NCBI GenBank assembly: GCA_020356025.1
Contig: CP070630.1
Span: 1,311,343 to 1,375,342, forward strand
DNA: 64,000 nucleotides
Direction: 5' to 3'
From: Dehalococcoidia bacterium
Lineage (GTDB): Bacteria > Chloroflexota > Dehalococcoidia > SM23-28-2
Below, piece by piece: positions 1,685 through 64,000 of this stretch (positions are counted from its first letter, which is position 1; the number at the start of each line of letters is the position of its first letter). The translations under genes were made by a program, and so were the position numbers. The notes below the pieces were generated by a model. It had not been told where the DNA came from. It saw only the letters and a program-made list of their open reading frames with translations, and did not search any database.

Positions 1685-1737
1685 GCTCTTCAGCAACTGC
1701 CCCACGCGTGTCTGTGCGAGCCGCCACCTACACTCAC

Positions 1738-5335: not shown

Positions 5336-5355
5336 GCGAGCGGACAAGCCTTCTG

Positions 5356-5385: not shown

Positions 5386-5410
5386 TCCTCTGCCCAGCAA
5401 GGAGGAAACT

Positions 5411-8658: not shown

Positions 8659-8678
8659 GGCCGAAGGAGATCAGTCTA

Positions 8679-9902: not shown

Positions 9903-9938
9903 CCCCAGCGGTCTGATTCTGTCAGGAGGGAGTGACCC

Positions 9939-35637: not shown

Positions 35638-35659
35638 AGTCACCTCCAAACGGTTTATG

Positions 35660-35688
35660 AGTGTAGCATCCCGACGTTCTAGGTTCAA
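35660..35688 (-). promoter_or_regulatory. putative promoter of the sdhA-sdhB-sdhE-like operon
   Basis: Minus strand: TTGAAC, 17 nt spacer, TACACT, with the TGC extension (TGCTACACT). Confidence 0.5.
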
Positions 35689-35696
35689 CCGCGGGA

Positions 35697-36251
35697 CTAC
35701 ATCTTTTGATGCCTGGCTGCCGCCCACAGGCCGACGATCGTCTTCACATCGCGGATCTCGCCCCGCTCGATGAGCCGCAGCGCCTCCTCCAGAGGCAGGC
35801 GCAGCACTTCGATGCTCTCATCCGCATCGGCCGTCAGTGCACTGGGCTCCAGCCCCGTCGCCAGATACAGATGCATGTACTCGTCGCAGTAGCCCGGCGA
35901 GGCGAAAAAGCTGCACAGACGCTCCAGCCGGCCGGCCCGCTGGCCTGTCTCCTCCTGAAGCTCCCGCTGAGCGGCCTCCTCTGGGCTCTCGCCGGAGTCG
36001 ACGCCGCCGGCGGGAATCTCCAAGAGCGATTGCTTGACGGGCAAGCGGTACTGCCGTACCAGAAGGACATCCCCCCGGCTGTCAAGAGCAACGATAGCTA
36101 CGATGGGAGCGTGCTCCACCACTTCGCGGACGGCCGAGCGGCCATCGGGTAGCTTCACCCGATCCACCCGCAGGTTCACCACCCGCCCCTCGTATACCCG
36201 ACGGCTCTCCACCACTTGCTCCTGATCCGAGGGATTTCGAGGCGCCTGCAA
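35697..36251 (-). CDS. NUDIX hydrolase (ADP-ribose pyrophosphatase type)
   Basis: Nudix box GGVDSGESPEEAAQRELQEETG. Confidence 0.85.
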   Translation of the reverse strand: MQAPRNPSDQEQVVESRRVYEGRVVNLRVDRVKLPDGRSAVREVVEHAPIVAIVALDSRGDVLLVRQYRLPVKQSLLEIPAGGVDSGESPEEAAQRELQEETGQRAGRLERLCSFFASPGYCDEYMHLYLATGLEPSALTADADESIEVLRLPLEEALRLIERGEIRDVKTIVGLWAAARHQKM

Positions 36252-41481: not shown

Positions 41482-42252
41482 ATGGAAAAGCCAGAGCGTG
41501 TTGTGCCGCTCCGCCGCACCGACGAGAGCGGCAATGGCCAGCGCCCCGTTTCCGGCTTCATGTTTCGGGGGCAGGCCCTGTCCATGCCCATCGCCCGGCC
41601 CCAGGGAGCTTCGCTAGCCAAGGGGCTGCATCGGCCCGCGTGGGCCGCCCTTTCGGCGCCTGTGCTCGACGTGGCCACCAGCATCAGCGGTGCCGCCTTG
41701 ACCGCCTTTCTTCTGATGCACATGGTTCTGCTATCCACCGTGCTGGCGGGAGCCACTACTCTGGACTCGTTGGCGGAGTTTCTCGAGCGATACTACCTGC
41801 TGCATATAGGCGCACCCCCGCTCATTCTCCTGCTCCTGGCCCACATCGTACTGGTGACGCGTAAGGCGCCAACCACCTTCCGCCAGCAGTGGACCCTGGT
41901 GCGCCAGCTACGCCAAATGGGGCACCTCGACACATGGACTTGGGCGTTTCAGGTGGTCAGCGGAGCAGCGCTGATGGCTTTCGTCTCGATTCACCTCTGG
42001 GTGTCTCTCACCGAGCTACCCATCGAGGCAGCCAAGAGCGGCGAGCGGGTCGCCGATTTCCTCTGGTTCGACATCCTCTTCGTGCTCTTCGTCGTAGGCC
42101 ACGCCTTCATCGGCCTCTACCGTATCACCGTTAAATGGGGGCTGCTCTCCCGCCGTGGAGCCTACGCAGCGCTAGCGACACTGACCGCTGTTGTTCTTGC
42201 AGTGGAGTTCGCCATTGTATCAAGCTTCTTCGCTCTCGGAGGCGGACAATGA
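41482..42252 (+). CDS. frdC: succinate dehydrogenase/fumarate reductase membrane anchor, single-subunit dihaem cytochrome b type (FrdC-like)
   Basis: About five hydrophobic helices with four spaced His (LLMHMV, LLAHIV, VSIHLW, VVGHAF). The stop overlaps the frdA-like ATG (ATGA at 42249-42252). Confidence 0.7.
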   Translation: MEKPERVVPLRRTDESGNGQRPVSGFMFRGQALSMPIARPQGASLAKGLHRPAWAALSAPVLDVATSISGAALTAFLLMHMVLLSTVLAGATTLDSLAEFLERYYLLHIGAPPLILLLLAHIVLVTRKAPTTFRQQWTLVRQLRQMGHLDTWTWAFQVVSGAALMAFVSIHLWVSLTELPIEAAKSGERVADFLWFDILFVLFVVGHAFIGLYRITVKWGLLSRRGAYAALATLTAVVLAVEFAIVSSFFALGGGQ

Positions 42253-44066
42253 CAACCATCATGACCGACGTTCTAGTAATCGGTGCCGGCCTGGCTGGCG
42301 AGCGCACGGCCGTCGAGGCTGCTGCGCATGGCAATCAGGTCATCATCCTCTCTCTGGTGCCGCCCCGACGCTCTCACTCCGTTGCCGCTCAGGGTGGCAT
42401 GCAGGCCGCCTTGGGCAACATGGCCAGGAGCGCCGGCGACTCTCCCGATGTCCACTTTGAGGACACGGTGAAGGGCGCCGACTGGGGATGCGAGCAAGAC
42501 GTGGCTCGTCTCTTCGTCAACCTCGCGCCCGTGGCCATTCGCCAGATGGCTCACTGGGGAGTCCCCTGGAGCCGGGTAGTGCCTGGCCCAAAGCGACTTC
42601 CCAGCGGCGAGATCGTCGAGGAGTCAGCCGAGAAGGAAGGCCTTATCGCCGCCCGCAACTTCGGCGGCACTAAGAAGTGGCGAGCCTGCTTCTGCTCTGA
42701 CGGCACGGGGCACTCCCTCCTCTACACCATGGACAACGTCGCCCTCCAACTCGGGGTCCAGGTTCACGATCGAACCGAGGCCCTCGCCCTCATCCATGAT
42801 GGCTCCCGATGCTACGGCGCCATAGTCCGAGACCTCCGCAACGGCGAGTTGCGTACCTATCTGGCCCGCGCCACCGTCATCGCTACCGGTGGCTACGGAC
42901 GTATCTACGGCCAATCCACCAACGCCGTCATCAACGACGGCACCGGCATGGCCCTAGCCCTGGAAACGGGCGTCGTCCCGCTGGGGAATATGGAGGCGGT
43001 ACAGTTCCATCCCACCGGCGTCGTGCCTGGGGACATCCTGGTCACCGAGGGATGCCGCGGTGACGGCGGCTACCTGCTGGACAAGGACGAGCACCGCTTC
43101 ATGCCCGACTACGAGCCGGAGAAGAAGGAGCTCGCATCTCGAGACGTGGTCAGCCGACGCATGATCCACCACGTACGCCAGGGTCACGGCGTCGAATCGG
43201 CCTACGGACCCCACCTCTGGCTGGATATTCGCCACCTGGGACAGGAACACATTGAGACGTACCTGCGCGACGTCGCTGATATCTGTCGCGACTTCTTGGG
43301 CATCGATCCGGTGCACCAGCCCATTCCCGTACGACCCACTCAGCATTACAGTATGGGCGGCGTCCGCACCGACATCGGCGGCCGCGCCTACGGCCTCGCC
43401 GGTCTATACGCCGCCGGAGAGGCGGCATGCTGGGACCTGCATGGCTTCAACCGCCTTGGCGGCAACTCGGTGGCCGAGACCGTGGTCATGGGCATGGTGG
43501 TGGGCAGAAGTGTCGCCCAAGACCTCGTGGGCTCGGACTTCTCCTTCCCCGACGCCCCTGTTCGCTCCGCAAAGGCGCAAGTGGAGCAGCGACTGCCTGC
43601 TCTCACCACCTATGGCCTGGAGTATGTCTGGGCCCTACGCCAGCAAATGTCAGCGATCCTCATGGAGAAGGTAGGCGTCTTTCGCAACGGCCGCGAGCTC
43701 GTCACAGCCGTGGAGGAGCTGCAGGAGCTCCAAGAGCGCGCCGAGCGCTTGGGGCTGCGCTCCACCGGACGAGGACCGAACCCCGAGCTTTCGGCGGCCC
43801 TGCGCCTCCCCGGCATGATCCGACTGGCCATTACCATCGCCTACGGTGCGCTGCAGCGCACCGAGAGCCGGGGAAGTCACTACCGGGAGGACTACCCCGC
43901 CCGGGACGATGCGCTCTGGCTCAGGCGGACCTTGGCAACCTGGCCGGCGGAGGCTGACCTACCACGCCTCAGCTATGAGCCCGTCAAGATCACAGAATTG
44001 CCCCCCGGGGAGCGCGGCTACGGCGAAACGCGGGAGGCGGCGAAAAAGGAGGGCGCCCGTGGCTAA
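42249..44066 (+). CDS. frdA: succinate dehydrogenase/fumarate reductase flavoprotein subunit (second copy)
   Basis: DVLVIGAGLAGERTA, RSHSVAAQGGM, HPTG...EGCRGDGG and HGFNRLGGNS motifs. Start set to ATG 42249 (the track ORF extends upstream into frdC). Confidence 0.9.
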   Translation: MTTIMTDVLVIGAGLAGERTAVEAAAHGNQVIILSLVPPRRSHSVAAQGGMQAALGNMARSAGDSPDVHFEDTVKGADWGCEQDVARLFVNLAPVAIRQMAHWGVPWSRVVPGPKRLPSGEIVEESAEKEGLIAARNFGGTKKWRACFCSDGTGHSLLYTMDNVALQLGVQVHDRTEALALIHDGSRCYGAIVRDLRNGELRTYLARATVIATGGYGRIYGQSTNAVINDGTGMALALETGVVPLGNMEAVQFHPTGVVPGDILVTEGCRGDGGYLLDKDEHRFMPDYEPEKKELASRDVVSRRMIHHVRQGHGVESAYGPHLWLDIRHLGQEHIETYLRDVADICRDFLGIDPVHQPIPVRPTQHYSMGGVRTDIGGRAYGLAGLYAAGEAACWDLHGFNRLGGNSVAETVVMGMVVGRSVAQDLVGSDFSFPDAPVRSAKAQVEQRLPALTTYGLEYVWALRQQMSAILMEKVGVFRNGRELVTAVEELQELQERAERLGLRSTGRGPNPELSAALRLPGMIRLAITIAYGALQRTESRGSHYREDYPARDDALWLRRTLATWPAEADLPRLSYEPVKITELPPGERGYGETREAAKKEGARG

Positions 44067-48616: not shown

Positions 48617-50719
48617 TCAGCTAGTGCCGATGCGGCTCCACTGAACCGAGTAGGGGCCCAGGGGACCGCTAACAGTGTCACCGGACGAATCGTAGGTGTA
48701 GTCGGCCTCCCAGGGATAGGTTTCCCCCTCGCTCGGACACCGTGCCGACCCTTCAACGTGGAGAGTATCCCCCTCGACGCTGCCAGAGCCCGTCCCTGTC
48801 GCAGAAGTCCCGGGGCAGGCAAAGGCCGCCTTGTCGTCGACTATTGTGACGTGGTAGATGCCGCCGCCACCACCACCGACCGCAAGTGTCTGATGGCTGC
48901 CATCGAAGTCGGTGGACTCCCAAGCGCCGATGAATGGACTCTCTGAAGCCGCGCCGCCTGGTGCGATGGGCATCGTGCAGCTCACAGGCGCCGTGACCAG
49001 AATAAGGAAGGCGTCGTACCTGTTCAGCAGTCCCATGTTGGAGATGTCCGGCCGGTCGGGGAAGTAGCGTTCCCAGCCTCCACCGACCAACCGATAGGCC
49101 GCCGCGTAGCTCCCTGCCGCACAGGCGAAGGCGTTCTGCGGCGGAGTGCCGTCGGGATCTGTCCAGCCATCGTTCTGCCAGCCGACGCCCCAGTCCAGCG
49201 TGCGTTCAGTGCCTGGCGGGTCGGCTACCGGCATCTCGCAGGTCACATCGCCGGTAATGAGGATGAGAAAGGCGTCGTACGGCTCCAGCGGTCCCATGTT
49301 GGAGATGTCCGGCCGGTCGGGGAAGTGGCGCTCCCAGCCTCCGCCCACCAATCGATAGGCAGCGGCGTAGTTGCCCGCCGCGCAGGCGAAGGCATCCTCA
49401 GGGGTGGAAGCCGCGCTCCAGGTGGCGTTCTGCCAGCCGGGGCCCCAGACCAGCGTGCGGGTCGGCCCGGCAGGCGGGGTAGCCGTGGCGGTGGCCGTAG
49501 GCGTGGTTGTCGCTGTGGGCGTCGGGCTCGGCGTCGGCGCTGAACAACTGTCCGGCGCGATGAACGGCTCGAAGTCAACGAGCCCCTGCGCCGGGTCGTC
49601 CACCTGGTGGTAGATCTCCTGCTCGATCTCGGCCGCCGTGCACAGTCCCCAGTTGTTGTGCTCGGCGTTCACGCCAGCGGTAGGGCCATCCATCTCCACC
49701 AGATAGTAGATGTCACCGAGGGTGCCTCCCGAGTTCACGAACGTGTTCGCCTCCGCTGGGCTGCCGCCGATGGTCGCGGTCAGCGTGAAGGCATCAGCCG
49801 GGTCCCAGTCATAAAGGTAGATGGGGCTCCTGATCTGGGTGAAGGTGTTTCGGCTGATGGTGACGGAGGTGCTGAGGGCGCTCTGCGGCGTTGCATCGAT
49901 CCCGTAATAGTCCGCGTCGCTTAGGTTGTTATCCGTGACCGTGACGGGACTGCCGGAAACGTAGAGGGTAGAGTTGGCGGTGCCTGCCGATATCTGGTTG
50001 TTCTGCACCACCATGTCGTTGCCGATGGCGGTCACGGTGCCGTTGGTCACCACGTTCCCCGCGATCGTACCCCGATCGCCATCCAGGCTGAGAGCGGTAC
50101 CACCACCGGCGTCGACGGTGTTGCTCCAGAGGCCGGAGTCGTCGCAGTAGCAAGCGATTCCCCCCGGGCCGTTGTCATGGACGTTGTTCCTGAGAATGTT
50201 CACGTTCGTGGGAGCGGGCATCCCGCCCGCTGACACAGCCCACGAAGTGGCGTTGCGGATCTCATTGTCCTGGATCGTAACGTAGTTCCCGGCGCTCGCA
50301 ATGCCAGACGTGCTGGCTCCGAATCCGGAAGGCGGAGTAAGATCCAGGTCCAGACCTTCGAGTGTGACGCCGTCGGCTCTAATGTCGAAGAGGGCGCTAG
50401 ACCCCCCGTCGTGGTGAACGGTGGCCACTCCATCGTCCACCGCGGTGGCGCCCGGGCCGGTGATCGTCAGGGAAACGTTGATCACGAGCGTTTGCTCTGG
50501 GTAGTCGCCCTCGCAGACGCGGATCGTGTCGTCATTCGTCGCCACAGCGAGAGCCTGGGTGATGGTCGGATAATCAGGGGGGCTGCCGTCAACGCAGTCG
50601 GAAGAGTCATCATCGACCACCCAGGTTCCCCCAACAGCCGCGACCGGCGGCGTGACGGTGGGATATACCATCAGAGCAAGTGCGAGGATCAGCAGATACA
50701 GCGTACCTCGATGCAACAT
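48617..50719 (-). CDS. secreted right-handed parallel beta-helix repeat protein with Thr/Pro linker and tandemly duplicated C-terminal domains
   Basis: Signal peptide MLHRGTLYLLILALALMVYPTV. Beta-helix/NosD-like repeats (NNVHDNGPGGIA, GNVVTNGTVTAIGNDMVVQNNQI, VTDNNLSD). Linker PTPSPTPTATTTPTATATATPP, followed by two ~80-aa paralogous domains. Start set to ATG 50719 behind AAAGGAG. Confidence 0.75.
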   Translation of the reverse strand: MLHRGTLYLLILALALMVYPTVTPPVAAVGGTWVVDDDSSDCVDGSPPDYPTITQALAVATNDDTIRVCEGDYPEQTLVINVSLTITGPGATAVDDGVATVHHDGGSSALFDIRADGVTLEGLDLDLTPPSGFGASTSGIASAGNYVTIQDNEIRNATSWAVSAGGMPAPTNVNILRNNVHDNGPGGIACYCDDSGLWSNTVDAGGGTALSLDGDRGTIAGNVVTNGTVTAIGNDMVVQNNQISAGTANSTLYVSGSPVTVTDNNLSDADYYGIDATPQSALSTSVTISRNTFTQIRSPIYLYDWDPADAFTLTATIGGSPAEANTFVNSGGTLGDIYYLVEMDGPTAGVNAEHNNWGLCTAAEIEQEIYHQVDDPAQGLVDFEPFIAPDSCSAPTPSPTPTATTTPTATATATPPAGPTRTLVWGPGWQNATWSAASTPEDAFACAAGNYAAAYRLVGGGWERHFPDRPDISNMGPLEPYDAFLILITGDVTCEMPVADPPGTERTLDWGVGWQNDGWTDPDGTPPQNAFACAAGSYAAAYRLVGGGWERYFPDRPDISNMGLLNRYDAFLILVTAPVSCTMPIAPGGAASESPFIGAWESTDFDGSHQTLAVGGGGGGIYHVTIVDDKAAFACPGTSATGTGSGSVEGDTLHVEGSARCPSEGETYPWEADYTYDSSGDTVSGPLGPYSVQWSRIGTS
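48971..49207 (-). repeat. in-frame coding tandem duplication, unit 2 (237 nt)
   Basis: Aligns with 49232-49462 with one 6-nt indel. Includes a 36-nt identical run, GTCCCATGTTGGAGATGTCCGGCCGGTCGGGGAAGT (plus-strand reading). Confidence 0.85.
49232..49462 (-). repeat. in-frame coding tandem duplication, unit 1 (231 nt)
   Basis: Protein level: ...WGPGWQNATW...AFACAAGNYAAAYRLVGGGWERHFPDRPDISNMGPLEPYDAFLILI... against ...WGVGWQNDGW...AFACAAGSYAAAYRLVGGGWERYFPDRPDISNMGLLNRYDAFLILV... Confidence 0.85.
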
Positions 50720-50835
50720 GGGAACCACTCCTTTCACGACATCCGCTGTCCGGCCATGGGCAGCGACTAGCCTGGAGAGCGTACCTCCGCAGCGGCATTA
50801 TAGCATCCCGCCCTTCTACGAGAGAGCCAGCCAGC

Positions 50836-51801
50836 TCAGCCCCGCCGCGGGCTCAGAACGTCGTTGAGTGCGTCGCCCAGCAGGTTGAACGCGAACAGCA
50901 GCAGCGCCACCACCGTCGCCGGCACCAGGAGGAGATGAGGGTGAGCGCGCAGGCTGCTCAAATCGCTGCCGGCCGCAATCATGGCACCAAAGCTGGGATG
51001 TGGATACGTGATGCCGATTCCCAGCCAGCTCAGCATAATCTCCGTCCCCGCCATGGCCCCCAGCGAGAAGGTGATGCTGACGATGATGATGTTGCCCACG
51101 TTGGGCAAGAGATGCCTGGAAAGGATCCGCCCCAGCGAGGCGCCCGAAGCACGCGCCGCCAGCACGTAGTCGCTCTCCCGCAGGGAGAGAACCTGGGAGC
51201 GGATCAGGCGGGCGATGCCCACCCAACCGAACAGGGCCAGGGCGCCGAACACCAGGAAGTAGTCGGGCGCGCCCGCTTCAACCAGACCTCCCGCCACGGG
51301 CCACGACTCGAATTTGTCGAACAGGTCCTCAACGCGGGGTCTGACGGTGGCAGTGATCAGAAGCAAGAGCAGGATATCGGGAAGGGCAAAGAAGGCATCG
51401 GCCACCCGCATGATGAAGTTGTCCACCGGCCCGCCGGCGTAGCCCGCCAGCAGGCCCAATCCCACCCCCAGCACCAGACCGCCGGTCAAGATGGCGGCGG
51501 CGCTGATGATGACAGTGGTCTGCGAGGCCCAGATCACCCGACTGAGCATGTCACGACCCAGGCGGTCGGTCCCCAATGGGTGGGCCAGGCTGGGACCGGC
51601 GAAGGTATTGTCCAGGTCCTGTTCGTTGTAGCCGTACGGCGATACCACGGGAGCAAGGAGGCCCGCCAGATAGATGACCAGAATCACCACCAGGCAGAAC
51701 ATCGCCAGCCGCTTACGCAGCAGCCGCCGCAGGGCCGTCGCGCCGAAGCCGGGGCGTGCCTCTTCCACCGGCTGTTCCAGGCCCAGCTCCGCTTCCGTCA
51801 T
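50836..51801 (-). CDS. ABC transporter permease (peptide/nickel, OppC/DppC type)
   Basis: Six-TM BPD-type permease with the EAA-like loop (ARASGASLGRILSRHLLPN). Start set to ATG 51801, directly after the upstream TAG. Confidence 0.9.
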   Translation of the reverse strand: MTEAELGLEQPVEEARPGFGATALRRLLRKRLAMFCLVVILVIYLAGLLAPVVSPYGYNEQDLDNTFAGPSLAHPLGTDRLGRDMLSRVIWASQTTVIISAAAILTGGLVLGVGLGLLAGYAGGPVDNFIMRVADAFFALPDILLLLLITATVRPRVEDLFDKFESWPVAGGLVEAGAPDYFLVFGALALFGWVGIARLIRSQVLSLRESDYVLAARASGASLGRILSRHLLPNVGNIIIVSITFSLGAMAGTEIMLSWLGIGITYPHPSFGAMIAAGSDLSSLRAHPHLLLVPATVVALLLFAFNLLGDALNDVLSPRRG

Positions 51802-51802
51802 G

Positions 51803-52786
51803 CTAGTACCTCGGCCCTCCCCCACCCAACCGCACGCGTGGGTCGATGAAGCCATAGGTGATGTCAGTGATCAGGTTGGCCACGATGAAGGCACTGGCTG
51901 TTATCAGGGTGACGGCCATGATCACGTCGTAATCACGATTGCCCACCGCCTCCCAGGTGAACTGGCCGATGCCGGGGATCCCGAACAGCGTCTCCACAAA
52001 CAGGGAGCCGCCCAGCAGGCCCACCAGAGCGAAGCCAACGATGGTGGTCATGGGCAGAAGCGCATTGCGGGCCACGTGACGGCTGATCACCACCACCTCC
52101 CGCAGGCCCTTAGCCCGCGCCGTGCGCACAAAGTCCTCGTCCAGCACCTCCAGGGTCTGGGCGCGCATCAGTCGGGCCACCGCAGCGATGCCCGGCAGGG
52201 ACAGCGCCAGAATGGGCATGATGATCCGCTTATCAAGAATTCCGATCTTCATGCCAAGGATGTCCCTCTCCTCCCAGCCACTGCTGGGCAGCCAGCCCAG
52301 CTTGATGGCAAATATGAACTGCAGAATGGGTATGATCACTAGCACAGGAACAGATCTGAAGAATAGAAAAATGCTGATCGTCAAGGGGTCCTGCCAGCTT
52401 CCCTGCCTGAGAGCCGCCCAGATACCTGCAGGGATGCCGATGGCGAAGATGATGACCAGCGCCACCAGATTGTACTGGATAGTGACCCACATCTTGTCGA
52501 AGATGATGTCCTCCACGGGCACGCCCCGAGGGGCAAAGGTAGTGCCCAGGTCGCCGTGGAGCACATCCCACATATAGTTCCCGTATTGGATAAAGAACGG
52601 ATCGTCCAGGCCCCGCTCGTGGCGGATGCGCTCCACCACCTCCGGGTTGTGATATTGCCCCTGCAGGATCTCCACCGGGTCGCCCGGACCGAAGCGGCCC
52701 AGAGCGAAGGTAGCCAGCGATACGGCCAGAAGAACAAACGGCGCCCAGACAAGGCGCCGCACTACAAAGGGGAGTATGCCCTGCAT
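51803..52786 (-). CDS. ABC transporter permease (peptide/nickel, OppB/DppB type)
   Basis: MQGILPFVVRRLVWAPFVLLAVSLATFAL N-terminus typical of OppB/DppB. EAA loop TARAKGLREVVVISRHVARNAL. Confidence 0.9.
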   Translation of the reverse strand: MQGILPFVVRRLVWAPFVLLAVSLATFALGRFGPGDPVEILQGQYHNPEVVERIRHERGLDDPFFIQYGNYMWDVLHGDLGTTFAPRGVPVEDIIFDKMWVTIQYNLVALVIIFAIGIPAGIWAALRQGSWQDPLTISIFLFFRSVPVLVIIPILQFIFAIKLGWLPSSGWEERDILGMKIGILDKRIIMPILALSLPGIAAVARLMRAQTLEVLDEDFVRTARAKGLREVVVISRHVARNALLPMTTIVGFALVGLLGGSLFVETLFGIPGIGQFTWEAVGNRDYDVIMAVTLITASAFIVANLITDITYGFIDPRVRLGGGGPRY

Positions 52787-52812: not shown

Positions 52813-54450
52813 TTACTCCTCGACCTGAACGTAGCGGAGACGCGGGATGACGAACGGAGGGAGGGTATAGCCCTCAACGTAGGGCTTGATGAGCACGCTG
52901 AACTTGTCGTGAAACAGGGGTATCCAGGGCGCCTCGTTGACGATGATCTGCTCCGCCTGCTGGTACAACGACATCCGCGTGGCCTCGTCCGTCTCCGTGT
53001 CCGCCTGCTCCAGCAGGCGATCCACTTCCGAATTGGCGTAGTGGCTGTAGTTGTTGTTGCTGCCGCTGTAGAACTGGATCTTCAGGAAGTTCTCCGGGTC
53101 AGGGTAGTCGGCCACCCAGCCTAGCTCGAACATCTGGTATTCGCCATCGCGGAGATCGCTAAGGAAGGTGGCGAACTCCGTCTGGCGGGTGGACACGCTC
53201 ACTCCCAGGTTCTCCTGCCACATGAACAGAATGGCCTCGCTCACTGGCCCCACGCTGGCCCCCCGTCCCGAGGAGGCAATCTCCATGTCGGGCAGCCCGT
53301 CGGGCCCGCCGTACTCGGACTCCGCCAGCAGTTGCTGCGCCTTCTCCACATCGAATTCCAGCCCCTGGAGCTCCTCGTTGAAGCCGGGGATGCCCGGCGG
53401 CAGGATGCCATCGGCCTCGACCACCGCATCCAGCAGCACCACCTCGATGAGCTTGTCCTTGTCGATGGCGTGCGCGAAAGCCTGGCGCACCTTGGGGTCA
53501 TCGAAGGGTGGCGTCCCTACGTTGAAGCCGATGTACCAGATGTCCATGCGAGGCGCTTCATGGAAGTCCTGATTGAGAGGCTCGGCCGGATCACGCACCC
53601 GCTCGATGTCGTTCAGGCCGACGCCGGTGACGTCGATCTCATCGTTCTCATACATGGTGATGGCCGACCCACCGCCCAAGGTGTACTCCACGCGGCCCAG
53701 CGATGCCGCCCCCAGGTGATAACGGCTGTTGGGCTCCAGAACGATGCGCTGTCCCAGGTCCCACTCCTTCAGCTTGAAGGGCCCGGTGGCATTGGGCCTG
53801 CGCTGCCAGTTGGTGTTGCTGAAACAGGTGCTCCCGTCCACCTGCCGGCGGTCCACCACGAAGCCGGTGGGATAGGTCAGCTTGGCCAGGAAGTAGGGCT
53901 TGGGTGCGTCGATGGTGATGCGAAGCGTGTAGCTGTCCACCGCCTCGATGCCCGTGACCTCGTCGGCATCGCCGTCGATGAACTCCTCGGCCCCCACGAT
54001 ATCGCCCAGATAGACCTCGGCCACCGTGGACTGGGTGTCGGGGTCGAGAGCGCGCTCCATGGAGTACTTGACGTCGCTGGCGGTCACCTGACGGTCCCCC
54101 TTGTGAAAGAGGACGCCTCGCCGCAGCTCAAAAGTGTAGACCGTGCCGTCGTCGCTCACGTCCCAGCGCTCGGCGATGTCCGGCACGATCTGCTGCTCGC
54201 GGTCGATGGTCACCAGGCCGCCGAAGACCTCCACGATGTAGTTAGCGGAGTCGACGTCGCTGGCGCAGGCGGGGTCGAGGGTCAGAGGGTCGCGGCCCAG
54301 CAGCCGCAGCTCGCCGCCGGTCACGGGCGCCGCCGGCGTCCCCTCGTCCGAGGGGCCCCCTTCCTCGCCGCCACAGCCACCCAGGAGAGCCATCACGCCA
54401 ACGACCACGGCGGCCAGACCGTAACAGCCAGAACGCAGAAACAGCCTCAA
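52813..54450 (-). CDS. ABC transporter substrate-binding lipoprotein, family 5 (peptide/oligosaccharide)
   Basis: Lipobox LLGGC. SBP_bac_5 pattern (GGELRLLGRDPLTLDP, WDVSDDGTVYTFELRRGVLFH). TTG start overlapping the aspS stop (TTGA). Confidence 0.9.
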   Translation of the reverse strand: MRLFLRSGCYGLAAVVVGVMALLGGCGGEEGGPSDEGTPAAPVTGGELRLLGRDPLTLDPACASDVDSANYIVEVFGGLVTIDREQQIVPDIAERWDVSDDGTVYTFELRRGVLFHKGDRQVTASDVKYSMERALDPDTQSTVAEVYLGDIVGAEEFIDGDADEVTGIEAVDSYTLRITIDAPKPYFLAKLTYPTGFVVDRRQVDGSTCFSNTNWQRRPNATGPFKLKEWDLGQRIVLEPNSRYHLGAASLGRVEYTLGGGSAITMYENDEIDVTGVGLNDIERVRDPAEPLNQDFHEAPRMDIWYIGFNVGTPPFDDPKVRQAFAHAIDKDKLIEVVLLDAVVEADGILPPGIPGFNEELQGLEFDVEKAQQLLAESEYGGPDGLPDMEIASSGRGASVGPVSEAILFMWQENLGVSVSTRQTEFATFLSDLRDGEYQMFELGWVADYPDPENFLKIQFYSGSNNNYSHYANSEVDRLLEQADTETDEATRMSLYQQAEQIIVNEAPWIPLFHDKFSVLIKPYVEGYTLPPFVIPRLRYVQVEE

Positions 54451-56270
54451 GGAGATTCCTTCGGGATTACCACGCCCGGCCTGAGCGCGATGTGCAGCTC
54501 CTTCAGCTGAGCATCGGAGACCGTGGACGGCGCGCCGAACAGAGGGTCGGAGGCGGTCTTCGTCTTGGGGAAGGCGATCACCTCCCGAATGTCCCGCTCG
54601 CCGGCCAGGATCATCACGGTGCGGTCGAGGCCGGTGGCGATGCCGCCGTGCGGCGGCGCCCCATACTCGAAAGCCTCCAGCATGTGGCCGAAACGGTCCT
54701 GCGCCTCCTCGGGCGCGATCCGCAGCAGGCTGAACATCTTCTCTTGCACGTCACGGCGATGAATACGGATGCTCCCGCCGGCTATCTCCCAGCCGTTGCA
54801 GACCAGGTCGTAGGCGCGGGCACGAACGCGGCCGGGGTCGGTATCCATGAGAGGCACGTCCTCTTCTTTAGGAGAGGTGAAGGGATGATGCACAGGGTCC
54901 CAGCGCTCTTCATCCTCGTTCCAGCCCAGGAGAGGGAAGTCAGTGGTGAAGCAGAAGACGAACAGGCCCTCGTCGATCAAATCCAGGCGCCGGGCCATCT
55001 CCCGCCGCAGGCCGTCCAACGCCTGGCCAACCTGCTCCTCCTGATCGGCCACCATGATGATCAGGTCGCCGCGGCTGGCACCGGCTCGGGCGGCGATGGC
55101 CCGTACTTCCTCCAGGCGCAGGTGGCGGTGCATAGGCGAACGAAACTCCTCGGCGGTCAGTTCCTCCACAGGCCCTTCACCCGTCAAGCCGATAGATATG
55201 AGCCCCTTGCCGCCGACAGTCTTGACGAATGCAGTGAGTTCATCGATCTGACGGCGGCCAAGGGCAGCACCGCCGGGGGCGCAGATGGCCCGCACCACTC
55301 CGCCGGCGGCCAGTGTCTGCTGGAAGACCGTGAACTCCGATTCGCTCAGCAGGTCAGAGACGTCCACCAGCTCCATGCCGAAGCGCAGGTCTGGCTTGTC
55401 GGTGCCGTAGCGGCGCATCGCCTCGGCGTAGGTGAGGCGAGGGAAGGGCTTGATGAGCCGCACGTCCGGCCGAAGCGTCTCCACCATCGCCGTGTGGAGG
55501 TCCTCCATCAGGTTCAGCATATCCTCTTCGTTTATGAAGCTTATCTCCATGTCGAGCTGAGTGAACTCTGGCTGCCGGTCGGCCCGCAGGTCCTCGTCAC
55601 GGAAGCAGTGGGCGATCTGGAAGTACCGCTCGAAGCCGGACACCATCAGCAGTTGTTTGAGCTGCTGGGGCGACTGAGGCAGGGCGTAGAAGCGGCCGGG
55701 GTTGACGCGGCTGGGCACCAGGTAGTCGCGCGCCCCCTCGGGCGTGCTCTTGATGAGGATAGGTGTCTCCACCTCTATGAACCCCCGCTCGCTGAGGAAA
55801 CTGCGAATGAACTGTACTATCTTGTGGCGGAAGACAACGTTTCGGTGCATGCGCTCCCGCCGCAGGTCCAGGTAGCGATAGCGCAGGCGTAGCAGGTCCT
55901 CAACCTCCGTCTCCTCATTGATGTAGAAGGGCGGGGTCTTCGATGGGTTGAGAAGGGTCGCACCCTGAGCGCGCACCTCGACCTCACCCGTGGCCATCTC
56001 GCGGTTCTCCGTGCCCGGCGGCCGCCGCCCCACCGTGCCCTTCACCTGGATCACGTACTCGCTCCGCACGTCGCTGGCCACAGCGTGGGCCTCCTCGGCC
56101 TCCTTGGGGCTGAACACCACCTGGACGATGCCTTCGTGGTCGCGCAGGTCGATGAAAATGAGGCTGCCGTGGTCGCGACGCCGGTGCACCCAGCCAGCCA
56201 GGGCTACCTCCTGGCCTTCGTGCTCGGCGCGCAACTCGCCGCAGCTATGGGACTTAAGGTATGTTTTCAT
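54447..56270 (-). CDS. aspS: aspartate--tRNA ligase (bacterial type, possibly non-discriminating)
   Basis: OB-fold N-terminus (GWVHRRRDHGSLIFIDLRD). Class-II motifs (FRDEDLRADRQPEFTQLD, GGSIRIH, APPHGGIATGLDR) and a GAD insertion. Confidence 0.96.
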   Translation of the reverse strand: MKTYLKSHSCGELRAEHEGQEVALAGWVHRRRDHGSLIFIDLRDHEGIVQVVFSPKEAEEAHAVASDVRSEYVIQVKGTVGRRPPGTENREMATGEVEVRAQGATLLNPSKTPPFYINEETEVEDLLRLRYRYLDLRRERMHRNVVFRHKIVQFIRSFLSERGFIEVETPILIKSTPEGARDYLVPSRVNPGRFYALPQSPQQLKQLLMVSGFERYFQIAHCFRDEDLRADRQPEFTQLDMEISFINEEDMLNLMEDLHTAMVETLRPDVRLIKPFPRLTYAEAMRRYGTDKPDLRFGMELVDVSDLLSESEFTVFQQTLAAGGVVRAICAPGGAALGRRQIDELTAFVKTVGGKGLISIGLTGEGPVEELTAEEFRSPMHRHLRLEEVRAIAARAGASRGDLIIMVADQEEQVGQALDGLRREMARRLDLIDEGLFVFCFTTDFPLLGWNEDEERWDPVHHPFTSPKEEDVPLMDTDPGRVRARAYDLVCNGWEIAGGSIRIHRRDVQEKMFSLLRIAPEEAQDRFGHMLEAFEYGAPPHGGIATGLDRTVMILAGERDIREVIAFPKTKTASDPLFGAPSTVSDAQLKELHIALRPGVVIPKESP

Positions 56271-58736: not shown

Positions 58737-60617
58737 ATGTACGTTATAGGCACCGCTGGCCACGTCGATCATGGCAAGTCGGCCCAGGTGAAGGCCCTCA
58801 CCGGCATCGACCCCGACCGCCACCAGGAGGAGAAGGAGCGCGAGATGACCATCGACCTGGGCTTCGCCTGGCTCAAGCTCCCCGGCGGCCAGGAGGTGAG
58901 CATCGTCGACGTCCCCGGCCACGAGCGGTTCATCAAGAACATGCTGGCCGGCGTGGGCGGCATCGACCTGGCCCTGCTGGTTATCGCCGCCGACGAAAGC
59001 GTCATGCCCCAGACCCGCGAGCACCTGGCCATCCTCGACCTGCTGGACGTGCACCGAGGCATCGTGGCTATCTCCAAGAAGGACCTGGTGGACAGCGAGC
59101 TGCTACCCCTGGTGGAGGCCGACGCCGCCGAGACCATCGCCGACACTACCCTGGAGGGCTCACCCATCGTGATCTGCTCCGCTGTCACCGGCGATGGTCT
59201 CACCGAACTACTGGACGCCATCGAGAAGACGCTGGCCCAGATACCCCCCAAGCGCGACCTCGGCCGTCCTCGCCTGCCCATCGACCGTGCCTTCACAGTG
59301 GCCGGCTTCGGCACCGTCGTTACCGGCACCCTCGTGGACGGCTCCTTCAAGGCAGGGCAGGAAGTGGAGATCGTCCCCGGCGGCCCCAAGTCGCGCATCC
59401 GGGGCATGCAGACCCACCAGCGCAAACTGGAAGAGGCCGAGCCCGGCCGCCGCCTGGCCCTGAACCTGGCAGGCATCTCCCCCCGCGATCTGCGACGGGG
59501 CATGGTGGTCACGAACCCCGGATGGCTTCGCCCCACCACAGCCATCGATGTGCGCCTGCGGGCCGTGAGCTATCTGCCGCGGCCGATTCGCCACAACCTT
59601 CAGGTCTCCTTCCACAGCGGCTCCAGCGAGGTAGCCGGCCGCGTCCTCCTCCTCGACCACGACGAACTGGCAGCCGGCCAGACCGCCTGGGCCCAGATCC
59701 GTCTGGAGGAACCGCTGGCGGTGGCCCCCGGCGACTTCTTCGTCATCCGCTCGCCCAACGACACCCTGGGCGGCGGCAAGGTGGTGGACACCCACGTGCG
59801 GCGCCATCGCCGCTTCCATCAGCCCACCCTCGAGACGCTGGAGAAGATGGACCGCGGCTCCCCGGAGGACATGCTGCTCATCACCCTGTCGCGCCTGGAG
59901 CCCTGCCAAGTGAGCCAGCTTGCTCGCCACACAGAATTGGCCTCCGACCAGGTGCTGGCGGCGGCCGCCGCTCTGGTCGACGGCGGCCGTGCCCTTACCC
60001 TGAGCGCCCAAAAGCTTGGCCCCGCCTCGCTCCTCTACAGCACCCAAGGGTTCGCCGACCTCACCGTGCGGGCAAGGGATGTCCTCTCGACCCTCCACCG
60101 CCAGCGTCCGCTGCGCCGAGGCGTCGCTAGGGAGGAGTTACGCAGCCGCCTCGGGCTCGACCCGCGAGCCTTTGATGCCGCCGTGGCCACCTGGCTGGAG
60201 CGAGGAGACGTTCGTGAGGAGGCAGGCGCCCTGGCCCTGCCCGAACATGCGCCGAGCCTAAGTCCGGCCCAGCAGGCCACTGCCGACGCCTTCCTCGCTT
60301 CTCTTCGGGCCAAGCCTTACACGCCGCCCACCGATAGCCTTCCCGATCCCGATCTCCTGGCCTATCTGGAGGAAGAGGGCCAGATCGTACGGGCGGACGA
60401 CAGCATCGCCTTTGCCAGGGAGGCCTATGAGGAAATGGCCTCCCGCATCGTCGAGCACCTGAAGGCCCAGGGCACCATCACCCTCGCCCAGGTGCGCGAC
60501 ATGTTCGCCACCAGCCGCAAGTATGCCCAGGCCCTCCTGGAGTACCTGGACGAGCAGCGCATCACCCGCCGCGTCGGTGACGAACGAGTCTTGCGCCGGA
60601 AGGCGGACACTGGCTAG
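58737..60617 (+). CDS. selB: selenocysteine-specific translation elongation factor
   Basis: MYVIGTAGHVDHGKS G1 motif, DVPGHERF and SKKD. EF-Tu-like domains II/III, then a long C-terminal winged-helix extension (about 626 aa in total), as in bacterial SelB. Confidence 0.9.
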   Translation: MYVIGTAGHVDHGKSAQVKALTGIDPDRHQEEKEREMTIDLGFAWLKLPGGQEVSIVDVPGHERFIKNMLAGVGGIDLALLVIAADESVMPQTREHLAILDLLDVHRGIVAISKKDLVDSELLPLVEADAAETIADTTLEGSPIVICSAVTGDGLTELLDAIEKTLAQIPPKRDLGRPRLPIDRAFTVAGFGTVVTGTLVDGSFKAGQEVEIVPGGPKSRIRGMQTHQRKLEEAEPGRRLALNLAGISPRDLRRGMVVTNPGWLRPTTAIDVRLRAVSYLPRPIRHNLQVSFHSGSSEVAGRVLLLDHDELAAGQTAWAQIRLEEPLAVAPGDFFVIRSPNDTLGGGKVVDTHVRRHRRFHQPTLETLEKMDRGSPEDMLLITLSRLEPCQVSQLARHTELASDQVLAAAAALVDGGRALTLSAQKLGPASLLYSTQGFADLTVRARDVLSTLHRQRPLRRGVAREELRSRLGLDPRAFDAAVATWLERGDVREEAGALALPEHAPSLSPAQQATADAFLASLRAKPYTPPTDSLPDPDLLAYLEEEGQIVRADDSIAFAREAYEEMASRIVEHLKAQGTITLAQVRDMFATSRKYAQALLEYLDEQRITRRVGDERVLRRKADTG

Positions 60618-60629
60618 GAGAAAAATGAA

Positions 60630-61001
60630 ATGGCAGAGATGAATCCAGCAGCCGTTTGTGGGATCTACTGCGGACGTTGCGAATACCTGGAAGAAACGTG
60701 CAAGGGATGCAGTGCAGAGAAAGGAAAGGTCTTCTGGACAAAATTGGAGGAAATCCCTTGGGATACCTGCCCAATCTGGGAGTGCTGTGTGGAACAGAAA
60801 CGACTTGAGCACTGCGGCCTCTGCTCCGACCTCCCCTGCGACACGTACCTCGCTTTGAAGGACCCTAATGACCCGCAGGCCGATCTGCACAAGAGGGAAT
60901 GCATCGAGAGTCTTAAGCATCGCGCGGAAGTTGGAACAAGGAGATGGCTCGAAGAGCAAGAGCGGCTGCCCAAGAGCCGAAGTCCTTCCGCCAGCGACTA
61001 G
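60630..61001 (+). CDS. DUF3795-like Cys-rich protein
   Basis: CGIYCGRCEY...CKGC...CPIWECC...CGLCSDLPCD pattern. 12 nt after the selB stop, with AGGAG SD. Confidence 0.65.
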   Translation: MAEMNPAAVCGIYCGRCEYLEETCKGCSAEKGKVFWTKLEEIPWDTCPIWECCVEQKRLEHCGLCSDLPCDTYLALKDPNDPQADLHKRECIESLKHRAEVGTRRWLEEQERLPKSRSPSASD

Positions 61002-61023
61002 ACGCTGAGAAAGTGAGCGCAGA

Positions 61024-62277
61024 ATGACCCTGGACTTCCAGCGCCTCGCCAAGCAGCTAGACGACCTGGCGCCGCGCCTGAGGGAGCAAGCCGAGGAGGG
61101 CCGAGCGCGCCTGCCTCAAGCCCTGGACGCCGCCCGTGCCTGGGCCGACCGGCCCGACAGCCTGCGCGAGCGCCTGAACGCAGCCAGCACCAGTTGGCTC
61201 CTGGCCGAACCGCTGGGCGAGCCCATCGACGCCACCTTTCCCGCTCCCCCGGTCCCCGACGAGTACGTTGCGCTGGCCAGCGACGGCTCCCACGTCGATG
61301 TGGACCGCCACAGCCCTGTCTCCTGCTACCTGCTGAACATGGGCCGCGTCCGCATCCGCTACGGCAGCCAGCCCGAAGCCGACCTGGCCAGCCAGCCAGA
61401 GCTCGCGTTCGAGGACGAACGCCTCGTCCTGAGCGACCGCAGCGACGCCAGCCACGAGGACGTGCTATCGGGCAACCTTCTCGCTGCCCTGCGCAGCGTG
61501 CGCGAAGTCGAACTGCTGGCCCGGCTCGCCACCGAGGAGGACAGCGGCCTGCCCACCCTCGCTCTCCTTGACGGCACGCTCGTGCTCTGGGGCCTGGCGC
61601 GCAGGGAGCTTCGCGGCGAAGTCAAGCGGGTCTTGCTAGACGAAGGCATCATCCGCGCCCTGGACGACCTCAAGACGCTGGCCGGCCAGAAGCCTATCGC
61701 TCTGGCCAGCTACATCAGCCACCCCGGCGGCAGCGAGGTCGCCCACACCCTGCGCCTGGCCGTCTGCCCCCTCCCCCAGGCCCAGCCGCCCCGGCCCGTC
61801 GACTGCCGCCGCTGCCCCCGCGAGGCAGACGAACCCAGGCCCTGCGATGCCGTCGGGCTGACCTCCGACCGCCCGCTCTTCAGAGCGCTGCTGGGGCCGG
61901 GCCAGCGGAGCGCCGTCTTTCGGCGAACAAACCTGGAGCCCACCTCCATCGAGAAGCAATTCTACAGCCAACACAGCGTAGCCTTCTTCTACCTGCGCAC
62001 GCCCGACGGTGTGCCCGACGACATAGCACGAGTGGAGATGCCGCTGTGGATCGGCCAGGACGAGCAAAAGGTCGGCCTTCTCCACACCCTCCTGATCGAC
62101 CAGTGCCGCCGTGGGCTCGGCTATCCCCTGGCGATCATGGAGGCCCACGAGCAGGCTGTGATCGGCGGCCCCGAGCGCGAGGCCTTTCGGCGACTGCTCG
62201 AGGCCCAGGTGACGGCGGAAGGGTTTTCCACCGCCCCATCCGGCAAGGACCTTAGTAAGCGAGCGCGTTGGCTATGA
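61024..62277 (+). CDS. nurA: NurA-domain 5'-3' nuclease
   Basis: NurA catalytic-core patterns: VALASDGSHVD (Asp), LALLDGTLVLWG, and C-terminal GYPLAIMEAHEQAVI. About 417 aa. Confidence 0.8.
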   Translation: MTLDFQRLAKQLDDLAPRLREQAEEGRARLPQALDAARAWADRPDSLRERLNAASTSWLLAEPLGEPIDATFPAPPVPDEYVALASDGSHVDVDRHSPVSCYLLNMGRVRIRYGSQPEADLASQPELAFEDERLVLSDRSDASHEDVLSGNLLAALRSVREVELLARLATEEDSGLPTLALLDGTLVLWGLARRELRGEVKRVLLDEGIIRALDDLKTLAGQKPIALASYISHPGGSEVAHTLRLAVCPLPQAQPPRPVDCRRCPREADEPRPCDAVGLTSDRPLFRALLGPGQRSAVFRRTNLEPTSIEKQFYSQHSVAFFYLRTPDGVPDDIARVEMPLWIGQDEQKVGLLHTLLIDQCRRGLGYPLAIMEAHEQAVIGGPEREAFRRLLEAQVTAEGFSTAPSGKDLSKRARWL

Positions 62278-62858
62278 ACAGCAAAGAGTCCCCAGAGATC
62301 ATCGGCCAGGTTGTGGCGGCGGACATCGCCTCCTTCACCGCCCAGAGCATCGAGCTTCACCGGGCACCGCCCCTGGGCAGCCTGGTGCAGACCGACGGCC
62401 CGATTTACGCCGTCGTCTGCGATGCCCGCACCGAGAGCGTCGAGGGGCGACGGCCGGTCGCTCACCTGTCCGGCGAGACCGACCTGCAATCCTTCCTCGA
62501 CGCCAACCCCCACCTCCGCCACCTCCTGCGCACCACCTTCGATGCCGTGGTGGTGGGTCACGGGGAGAGCGCTACCCTCCGCCACTACCTGCCACCCCAT
62601 CCTGCCCCCATCTTCGCCCCCCTGCGTCTCTGCCCCCAGGAGGAGGTGGCTCGCTTCAGCGAAAGCCTGGACTTCCTCAAGCTGCTCCTCTCGGCCGCCG
62701 ACAACAGCGACGAGGTAGCGGCGGCCTGCCTGCGCCTGGCCAGCGCCGCTCATCCCGACCCCCGCGCCTTCCTGCTGACGGCCGGCAAAGAGCTGGCGCG
62801 CCTGCTGCCCAACGAGCCCCAACGTCTCACCGCTATCCTCAGGAGGATCCGACCATGA
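62274..62858 (+). CDS. hypothetical protein, possible HAS-barrel-like N-terminus, third member of the nurA/herA operon
   Basis: The ATG at 62274 overlaps the nurA TGA (ATGA), and its own TGA overlaps the herA ATG (ATGA at 62855-62858). The N-terminal IIGQVVAADIASFTAQSIELHRAPPLGSLVQTDGPIYAVVCDARTE resembles the beta-barrel opening of HerA proteins. No family recognised. Confidence 0.55.
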   Translation: MNSKESPEIIGQVVAADIASFTAQSIELHRAPPLGSLVQTDGPIYAVVCDARTESVEGRRPVAHLSGETDLQSFLDANPHLRHLLRTTFDAVVVGHGESATLRHYLPPHPAPIFAPLRLCPQEEVARFSESLDFLKLLLSAADNSDEVAAACLRLASAAHPDPRAFLLTAGKELARLLPNEPQRLTAILRRIRP

Positions 62859-64000
62859 ACGACCACGACAAGCCCGAATCACAGACGACGCCAGACCGCC
62901 TGGGCCTGGTGGTGAGCGGCTCCCTGGCCGGTGGCCTGGACGTGAGGCTCGATAGCTCCCGCTCGGTGGAGGAGATGGCCGTCGGCCGCTACGTCACCGT
63001 CCAGGGCCACCGCTCCCGTTTCTTCGGCATCATCACCGACGTCGAGCTGCGCGCCGCCAATCGCGACATCCCCTGGTCACTCCCCGAAGCGACCGACGAC
63101 TTCGCCCGCGAGGTCATGGCCGGCACGACCACCTTCGGCAGCCTGCGCGTCGTGCCCTACCTCCAGGTGAGAGCCACCGCCGACGCCCAGCCGGAGCCCG
63201 CCAAGACCGTGCCCGTCCACTTCGCCGAGGTGCGGGACGCCTCCCAGGAGGACGTGGAGCGCATCTTCGGCCAGGAGGACGAAAGCCACTTCATCATCGG
63301 CAGCCCTCTGGACATGGAGGTCAAGGTCTGCCTCAACTACCAGCGCTTCGCCGAGCGCAGCAACGGCGTCTTCGGCAAGAGCGGCACCGGCAAGACCTTC
63401 CTCGCCCGCATCGTCCTCGCCAGCCTGATCCAGAAGAGCAACGCCCAGCGCGAGGCCGACAAGCGAGTGGTCAACCTGGTGTTCGATATGCACAACGAGT
63501 ACGGCTGGAAGGGCACCCGCGAGGGCGGCTCGGGCGAGGTCAAGGCCCTCAAGCAGCTCTTCTCCGCCAGCGTGGCCGTCTTCACCCTCGACACGGAGAG
63601 CTCCCGCCGCCGCCAGGTTGCCACCGACGCCGTGGTCGAGATCGGCTACGACGAGGTGGAGCCGGAGGACATCGAGGTCCTGCGGGAGACCGTGAACCTG
63701 ACCGACCTGGCCGTCGAGGCCGGCTACACGCTTGAGCGCCGCTTCGGCCGCCAGTGGATCGAGAAGACGCTGGCGCTAGACCCGTCGGACGAGGAGGAGC
63801 GCGAGTTCCTCCAACGAGAGTCCATCCACGATTCGAGCTTCCGCAACCTCCGCCGCGGCCTGCGCCGCCTGGAACGCCTGGAGTTCCTGCGTCCCCACAC
63901 CGAGCAGAACTCGGTGCAGACCATCCTCAACTACCTCCAGAGCGGCAAGAACGTGGTGCTGGAGTTCGGCCGCCACGGCGATAACATCACCGCCTACGTG
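62855..64000 (+). CDS. herA: HerA/DUF87-type hexameric ATPase-helicase (5' part; truncated by window end)
   Basis: Not in the ORF track (no stop in the window). My translation is open for 382 codons. It shows HAS-barrel-like RLGLVVSGSLAGGLDVRL...VGRYVTVQGHRSRFFGIITDVEL, Walker A GVFGKSGTGKTFLA, and the HerA-typical VFDMHNEYG. SD AGGAGGA at 62841-62847. Confidence 0.8.
   Translation, partial: MNDHDKPESQTTPDRLGLVVSGSLAGGLDVRLDSSRSVEEMAVGRYVTVQGHRSRFFGIITDVELRAANRDIPWSLPEATDDFAREVMAGTTTFGSLRVVPYLQVRATADAQPEPAKTVPVHFAEVRDASQEDVERIFGQEDESHFIIGSPLDMEVKVCLNYQRFAERSNGVFGKSGTGKTFLARIVLASLIQKSNAQREADKRVVNLVFDMHNEYGWKGTREGGSGEVKALKQLFSASVAVFTLDTESSRRRQVATDAVVEIGYDEVEPEDIEVLRETVNLTDLAVEAGYTLERRFGRQWIEKTLALDPSDEEEREFLQRESIHDSSFRNLRRGLRRLERLEFLRPHTEQNSVQTILNYLQSGKNVVLEFGRHGDNITAYV

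Follow-up and report, generated by a model that had tools for sequence, protein, structure and literature searches.

A stand-alone HAS-barrel gene between nurA and herA in a Dehalococcoidia bacterium, a candidate accessory subunit of a NurA-HerA nuclease-translocase

NurA-HerA is the textbook archaeal end-resection machine, with a canonical HerA:NurA complex of 6:2, and its bacterial counterparts have been studied mainly in Deinococcus-Thermus. Here, we describe a nurA-herA locus with an additional gene between the two, hereafter X, at the end of a 64,000-nucleotide stretch of a Dehalococcoidia genome (phylum Chloroflexota; assembly GCA_020356025.1, contig CP070630.1, positions 1,311,343 to 1,375,342), which we refer to as the window. 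In the described complexes, the HAS-barrel ring of the HerA hexamer is the docking surface of the NurA dimer, and DNA is threaded through HerA into NurA (PMC9960219, PMC12977600). The reading that we favour, with moderate confidence, is that the locus encodes a vertically inherited, chromosomal NurA-HerA nuclease-translocase and that X is its lineage-specific HAS-barrel accessory subunit.

The NurA-HerA system of Deinococcus radiodurans (DR_0836/DR_0837; PDB 7F6D and 7WRW) is likewise encoded by a bacterial operon without linkage to mre11/rad50 (PMC9960219). It too pairs NurA with a HAS-barrel HerA ATPase, and a HerA6:NurA2 arrangement with NurA on the HAS-barrel face is expected here as well. 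Like the NurA of the window, DrNurA has an N-terminal extension ahead of its catalytic domain (PMC12977600). Unlike the Deinococcus operon, the window operon contains an extra 194-amino-acid (aa) HAS-barrel gene between nurA and herA, and it belongs to a lineage, Chloroflexota, in which inserted genes often part nurA from X-herA. A sequence-only reading of the window had pointed to the lack of mre11/rad50 next to the NurA/HerA pair; the linkage is indeed absent, but bacterial nurA-herA without mre11/rad50 was already known from Deinococcus (PMC9960219). The archaeal mre11-rad50-herA-nurA operon (Sulfolobus, Pyrococcus, and Thermococcus; PDB 4D2I and 9X1L) encodes the same two enzyme families, and X finds its best structural counterparts in the HAS-barrels of SsoHerA and TkoHerA, whereas the window locus is bacterial, has a third gene, and showed no mre11/rad50 linkage. 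A third gene between nurA and herA also occurs in Pyrobaculum, as nurA-csm6-herA by CRISPR arrays (PMC3396285, as related in PMC12977600). According to that second-hand account, the middle gene there is the CRISPR-associated Csm6 in a CRISPR context, whereas here it encodes a HAS-barrel protein in a housekeeping context. Finally, the anti-phage systems Sir2-HerA/Nezha, DUF4297-HerA, and TdpAB (PDB 8WFD) also have a HerA hexamer with an effector held on its HAS-barrel side, and TdpA has the highest identity (~21%) among the structural matches of X. Unlike these systems, the window locus has no Sir2, DUF4297, or Tdp partner, and the locus in the window clade lies neither on mobile elements nor in an island-like context. 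What is new in this comparison is the dedicated stand-alone HAS-barrel partner, which is absent from Pfam and NCBIfam; in the literature searched, neither NurA/HerA of Chloroflexi nor any stand-alone HAS-barrel partner was described.

X had been called unrecognisable in the sequence-only reading; by its predicted fold, it is instead a HAS-barrel protein, a paralogue-like copy of the N-terminal domain of HerA. The AlphaFold2 model of X, computed from a 20-sequence alignment, reached a predicted local distance difference test (pLDDT) score of 86.4 and a predicted template modelling (pTM) score of 0.81. The predicted fold consists of a beta-barrel at about residues 9-119, with a helical insertion at residues 71-84, and five helices at residues 122-192. 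In a Foldseek comparison with the PDB, the top 50 matches of X were all HerA chains (probability 1.00), the best being 4d2i from Sulfolobus (E 2.6e-6), and the part of HerA aligned to X was the N-terminal HAS-barrel. The matches include Thermococcus HerA-NurA (9x1l), TdpA (8wfd), Deinococcus HerA (7wrw), the HerA-NurA complex 7f6d, and the Sir2-HerA and DUF4297-HerA complexes. Further, the Pfam HAS-barrel model matched 14 of 29 divergent members of the X family (best E-value 1.8e-8), and no other Pfam family did. Residues 7-133 of X were collinear with residues 13-142 of the cognate HerA in hhalign, with the same order of barrel, insertion, and barrel, though at a non-significant E-value. The X profile returned only noise against PDB sequences, and a comparison of the X structure with viral proteins found no similar structure. 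Judged by its model, X is a HAS-barrel protein that stands alone and has no ATPase domain, and it is most simply explained as an old paralogue of the HerA N-terminal domain.

In keeping with the sequence-only reading, the middle gene encodes a separate, uncharacterised protein, and this protein is conserved. A word-indexed search gave 394 relatives of X, and an exhaustive hidden Markov model (HMM) search of 1.84 billion representatives then gave 1,020 clusters (50% identity) at E<=1e-3, or 693 when the threshold was tightened to E<=1e-10. Almost all members are about 190-215 aa long and were matched end to end. X had no match in Pfam, NCBIfam, or PADLOC, and neither Pfam nor NCBIfam holds a model of the X family itself. 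Named members come from Dehalococcoidia, 'Chloroflexi', and Anaerolineae, together with one partial sequence from the cyanobacterium Thermostichus and one contig labelled Sericytochromatia. Against close orthologues, the ratio of nonsynonymous to synonymous substitution rates (dN/dS) of X was 0.24-0.35, indicating purifying selection like that on its neighbours (0.21-0.29 for nurA and about 0.2 for HerA). Between clades, X is the better conserved protein, being 50-55% identical, vs about 40% for NurA.

These data bear directly on whether X is an annotation or assembly artefact, that is, a split piece of the N-terminus of herA or the C-terminus of nurA, or else an unrelated passenger gene. X does resemble the N-terminal domain of HerA, and the database entry P0226 has NurA and X joined in one protein. 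In more than 1,000 clusters and 110 loci, however, X is an open reading frame (ORF) of its own, about 194 aa long, and its dN/dS is about 0.3. Moreover, the downstream HerA is full length with its own HAS-barrel, Shine-Dalgarno sequence, and start codon, NurA covers the whole Pfam model, and a passenger gene is excluded by the herA linkage in 81 of 83 loci described below. We consider this explanation very improbable, and its artefact version is already refuted by the conservation data: X is conserved, and it is not a frameshift fragment of herA or nurA, the two ways in which the sequence-only reading had supposed that it might fail. P0226 itself, which scores above the Pfam HAS-barrel cutoff, was rejected as Rosetta-stone evidence for a NurA-X association, its NurA C-terminus being frameshifted (AEAPRTGG for AEAHEQAV).

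The gene neighbourhood of X was surveyed in 110 loci (22 from GTDB species representatives, 80 metagenomic, and 8 from look-ups), which were HMM-scanned for NurA, X, and HerA. Of the non-redundant loci in which X is followed by 400 bp of sequence or more (83 loci), 81 have herA downstream of X, and in 76 it is at most 100 bp away. An overlap of exactly 4 nt between the stop codon of X and the start codon of herA, reading ATGA or GTGA, recurs beyond chance, in 79 of 89 related loci, and AGGAGG or GGAGG lies 4-18 nt ahead of the herA start in 77 of 93. This ribosome-binding site of herA coincides with the Arg-Arg or Gly-Arg codons of a conserved C-terminal IL(R/G)RI motif of X; in the window, it is embedded in the Arg-Arg codons of the conserved ILRRI motif (62835-62858). 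The three plus-strand ORFs of the window and their two ATGA overlaps lie at exactly the coordinates that were first read (Table 1). The fixed stoichiometry that had been deduced from the overlaps was an over-statement, as translational coupling is no proof of it.

Table 1 Features of the nurA-X-herA locus in the window
Feature	Position	Strand	Length	Remark
nurA	61024-62277	+	417 aa	Pfam NurA match
X	62274-62858	+	194 aa	stand-alone HAS-barrel protein, proposed accessory subunit
herA	62855-64000	+	381 codons in window	cut by window end; full length ~550 aa
ATGA overlap, nurA stop/X start	62274-62277	+		sequence read directly
ATGA overlap, X stop/herA start	62855-62858	+		sequence read directly
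AGGAGG Shine-Dalgarno of herA	62841-62846	+		8 nt ahead of herA ATG; sequence read directly

On the other side of X, nurA was present upstream on the same strand in 61 loci, with a nurA-X gap of 0-4.4 kb that measured at most 60 bp in 13 of them. The gaps hold variable, unrelated genes (e.g., glutaminyl cyclase, GNAT, and an iron-sulphur protein). In 18 loci, an IS200-like ORF of 180-200 aa stands immediately upstream of X (among them L015, 5391-5933, and L016, 5379-5978), with weak matches to Y1 transposase (E 8.8e-7 and 1.3e-3). The nurA-X gap looks like an insertion hotspot, and we propose no conserved fourth gene in it, only the IS200-like ORF being recurrent and the rest variable. Loci of the close clade, whose X is at least 65% identical, keep the nurA/X ATGA overlap, as do a few remoter loci such as L029. 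Direct adjacency of nurA and herA was not seen, X intervening here and in every related locus. The placement of X between nurA and herA by the sequence-only reading therefore holds in part: X is nearly always joined to herA, but as much as 4.4 kb, with unrelated genes, can separate X from an upstream nurA. What stays constant is X-herA, with a nurA in the vicinity; the fully overlapped chain of three genes is mainly a feature of the window clade, although nurA also abuts X in a few remoter loci (e.g., L029).

We also examined four peripheral X proteins of about 30-35% identity. Two loci have a tight NurA-X pair and no HerA in the locus: L112 and L114, of which L114 lies on the Sericytochromatia-labelled contig. 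X is not always wedged between both genes. Because such NurA-X pairs occur without an adjacent herA, X is genetically tied to both NurA and HerA, as expected of a protein that contacts both. In the other two, X stands alone beside a complete HEC-01 candidate defence pair (AAA_15 ATPase and DUF4276; L111, 3755-5775) or beside type I-E cas genes and an N6/N4 DNA methyltransferase (L113, 2020-6680 and 12487-13794), and no NurA or HerA was found within 6-8 kb of X in either. The L113 methyltransferase is followed by three unannotated ORFs of 225, 478, and 499 aa. All four peripheral X proteins lack the RR/GR tail. The absence of this tail from four X genes that no herA follows fits a tail constrained by the ribosome-binding site of herA, and the C-terminal conservation of X probably reflects in part a constraint at the mRNA level.

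The existence of NurA-X pairs without adjacent HerA might also suit a quite different role, in which X would be a decoy or anti-activator that mimics the HAS-barrel of HerA and sequesters the NurA dimer or caps the HerA ring, leaving the nuclease uncoupled until a signal arrives. In its predicted structure, X shares the fold of the NurA-docking domain of HerA, and HerA retains its own HAS-barrel, so that a second barrel is unneeded for docking. Further, Deinococcus NurA alone is described as little active and as switched on by HerA (Cheng 2015, as cited in PMC12977600). Nevertheless, the obligate translational coupling of X and herA is more readily explained by a subunit that co-assembles than by an antagonist, X contains no recognisable signal-sensing domain, and the idea is inferential throughout. 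We consider a decoy an unlikely but live alternative.

The two outer genes are NurA and HerA, as had been read from their motifs. NurA matched Pfam PF09376 with an E-value of 6.6e-23 and 81.9 bits (cutoff 21) over model positions 4-254 of 254. The domain spans residues 84-380, and an extension of about 83 aa precedes it. Residues D87-G-S-H90, E161, D183-G184, and H375-E376 were invariant in 14 orthologues, down to 41% identity; D87 lies in the motif DGSH, D183 in DG, and H375-E376 in AHEQAV. Mapped by motif, not by structure, D87, E161, D183, and H375 would correspond to D51, E105, D126, and H411 of the Pyrococcus enzyme. NurA is likely an active nuclease, because these four motif residues are invariant. 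NurA also contains a cysteine cluster, CP...(D)C..xC...RxC (window 61765-61845, residues ~248-274), in which C248, C264, and C274 were invariant and C261 nearly invariant among the 14 orthologues. By its sequence, this four-cysteine insertion resembles a zinc-binding insertion, and it is not known to be described for solved NurA proteins. No solved NurA, whether from Deinococcus or from archaea, was among the matches of NurA to PDB sequences (E<=1).

HerA matched Pfam DUF87 (PF01935) with an E-value of 2.5e-24 and 87.1 bits (cutoff 23.2). Its match to the Pfam HAS-barrel (PF09378; E 1.2e-4, 22.5 bits) was slightly under the cutoff of 25.2; the HerA orthologues of loci L028 and L030 carry HAS-barrel matches (E<=1e-5), and that of L029 has only a faint one. 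The Walker A motif GKSGTGKT and the motif FDMHNEYGW of the window HerA are invariant among orthologues, as is, in full-length orthologues, a Walker-B-like LVITIEEAH that lies past the window end. Exact-sequence look-ups of the NurA and X of the window (both start codons) gave no match. The 3' end of herA and the genes downstream of it were inferred from loci with 87-95% identical proteins, and the HerA of locus L001, which is 95% identical to the window HerA over the shared part, is full length with 550 aa. The best PDB sequence matches of HerA were anti-phage HerAs, namely Sir2-HerA (8wiv, 2e-17) and DUF4297-HerA (1e-15), and they cover only its C-terminal ATPase part. Deinococcus HerA (DrHerA) was not among the PDB sequence matches at E<=0.01.

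The data on the window clade speak for a core function that is inherited vertically. A gene of the histone-deacetylase family (HDAC), SecDF, and the CCA-adding enzyme still surround the module in loci where the identity of X has dropped to 42-46%. Furthermore, as the flanking HDAC, SelB, HemN, and AspRS become less identical from locus to locus, NurA, X, and HerA do so in parallel. In L001, HDAC, SelB, and HemN are 89, 89, and 86% identical, vs 87, 90, and 95% for NurA, X, and HerA; the corresponding values in L004 are 69, 72, and 66% vs 60, 65, and 73%, and in L029 HDAC is 52% identical, vs 38, 42, and 53% for NurA, X, and HerA. None of the three proteins had a tblastn match among 72,556 plasmid records, nor did X among 50,697 phage records, and a pattern scan of IMG/VR, suited to close relatives of X only, was likewise negative. 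No Sir2 or DUF4297 effector was present in the window locus or in the annotated orthologous loci.

The sequence-only reading had offered a variant repair machine or a defence module. The defence option, in which NurA would be the effector nuclease that shreds invading linear DNA and X would be a sensor or regulator in an anti-phage or anti-plasmid module, is not favoured for the window clade, given the housekeeping synteny and the lack of a plasmid, phage, or PADLOC signal, and we regard it as rather unlikely. It draws on the use of HerA-family motors as scaffolds of several defence systems and on weak matches to anti-phage HerA models in PADLOC and NCBIfam. A Mrr-type restriction enzyme also lies two genes upstream in L001, peripheral X genes adjoin HEC-01 and type I-E cas genes, and the nurA-X gap is a hotspot of insertions that include IS200-like ORFs. 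A 2026 structural study even proposes that archaeal HerA-NurA may be antiviral and not a resection enzyme (PMC12977600). Against these points, the housekeeping synteny is kept down to about 52% identity of the neighbouring genes, the divergence of the module equals that of the flanking core genes, and the plasmid, phage, and IMG/VR searches were negative. Moreover, NurA and X had no PADLOC match and the best HerA model there reached 33.7 bits only, the NCBIfam anti-phage HerA models NF042943 and NF042944 scored 26.2 and 15.9 bits vs cutoffs of 850 and 800, and no Sir2 or DUF4297 partner was found.

If X is an accessory subunit, as we favour, the complex might work as follows. The hexameric HerA ATPase would feed duplex DNA to the NurA dimer, which would degrade the DNA from its ends. 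X would be a third dedicated subunit in Dehalococcoidia and some other Chloroflexota, probably co-synthesised with HerA through translational coupling. It may bind the NurA dimer, the HAS face of the HerA ring, or both, via its HAS-barrel and/or its helical domain, and could act as an adaptor or gate that couples the nuclease to the motor. The role of the complex might be DNA-end processing, in double-strand-break or stalled-fork repair, independently of Mre11-Rad50, and possibly also the degradation of linear foreign DNA. A bolder version, which we put forward only tentatively, is that X represents an unrecognised third class of subunit, a free-standing HAS-barrel protein that, as a ring or adaptor, sits between NurA dimer and HerA hexamer and gates their coupling; where NurA-X occurs without a neighbouring herA, NurA may use a passive, ATPase-free HAS-barrel platform. 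If this were true, the docking and ring function of the HAS-barrel would be separated from the motor function of HerA, and there would be a new handle on what NurA-HerA does in cells.

Several observations weigh against an accessory subunit of a repair machine. The window X itself had no Pfam HAS-barrel match at E<=1, and its similarity to the N-terminus of the cognate HerA was non-significant in both small and enlarged alignments (hhalign E ~0.1), so that homology between the two rests on structure and on the Pfam matches of other family members. As HerA keeps its own HAS-barrel, the need for a second one is not obvious. In addition, nurA is frequently parted from X-herA by unrelated genes, and the lone X genes of L111 and L113 stand beside defence genes with neither partner near. 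The ATPase part of HerA is closest in PDB sequence to anti-phage HerAs, and the canonical repair role of HerA-NurA is itself disputed (PMC12977600).

Upstream of nurA, the window contains selB and a DUF3795 gene on the same strand, with gaps of 12 and 22 bp (58737-61023), and a divergent HDAC gene precedes selB. Scans of the stretch from selB to herA for promoters and terminators gave no plus-strand signal, which is weak negative evidence, and the NurA-X-HerA module may be co-transcribed with selB, the gene of the selenocysteine elongation factor, in the window clade. Loci with a 66-95% identical X have the same order, selB-(DUF3795)-nurA-X-herA, and a HerA of 548-550 aa. Downstream of herA, the orthologous loci contain small hypothetical genes, DUF6504, and SecDF, and then the CCA-adding enzyme, def, and priA. 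In L001, whose X is 90% identical to that of the window, the DUF3795 gene is absent at the equivalent position, and a Mrr-type restriction endonuclease with a HARE-HTH domain (L001 6002-6766), absent from the window, lies between the deacetylase gene and selB. A 6.5-kb contig with an X 95% identical to that of the window (L006, JAIVWR010000071.1) is filed under an Acidobacteriota metagenome-assembled genome; this label is probably a binning error, because all other named relatives are Chloroflexota.

To assess mre11/rad50, we scanned against Pfam 21 distinct ORFs of the window that encode 330 aa or more and lie outside the operon. They proved to be genes of core metabolism and housekeeping, including PolA, aconitase, tricarboxylic acid (TCA) cycle enzymes, ClpX, trigger factor, and SelB. 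Two ORFs (52813-54450 and 54447-56270) were assigned through their L001 orthologues only, as SBP_bac_5 and AspRS, and three that overlap other listed ORFs (1663-3360, 5381-6373, and 9312-11447) lay outside the scan. No Mre11 (Metallophos) or Rad50 was found among the scanned ORFs, in keeping with the absence of mre11/rad50 from the 61 kb upstream of the operon that had been noted earlier. PolA is the sole ORF of at least 800 aa outside the operon, so there is no Rad50/SbcC-sized gene in the window. The annotated orthologous loci likewise showed no mre11/rad50 in the 8-10 kb to each side; a linkage just downstream, as in an ordinary end-resection operon, had been thought conceivable.

Elsewhere in the window, two paralogous succinate-dehydrogenase/fumarate-reductase flavoprotein genes lie within 8 kb of each other (33964-35727 on the minus strand and 42135-44066 on the plus strand), and two family III coenzyme A (CoA)-transferases stand in tandem at 7375-9902. 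Two ORFs had no Pfam match at E<=1e-5, namely 4937-6139 (minus strand, 400 aa) and 50680-51849 (plus strand, 389 aa). The latter overlaps an oligopeptide-permease gene on the opposite strand and is probably spurious.

Our analyses indicate that a large and abundant environmental lineage (Dehalococcoidia, other Chloroflexota, and some Cyanobacteriota) keeps NurA-HerA in its core genome, together with a family, X, that copies precisely the NurA-docking domain of HerA. This family is annotated at present only as 'hypothetical protein', and it merits a database model of its own. If X is a true subunit, the HerA6:NurA2 architecture would not be universal, and X would be a natural tool for studying the coupling of nuclease and motor. 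The X-HerA-NurA locus is a solid, testable lead for researchers working on HerA machines.

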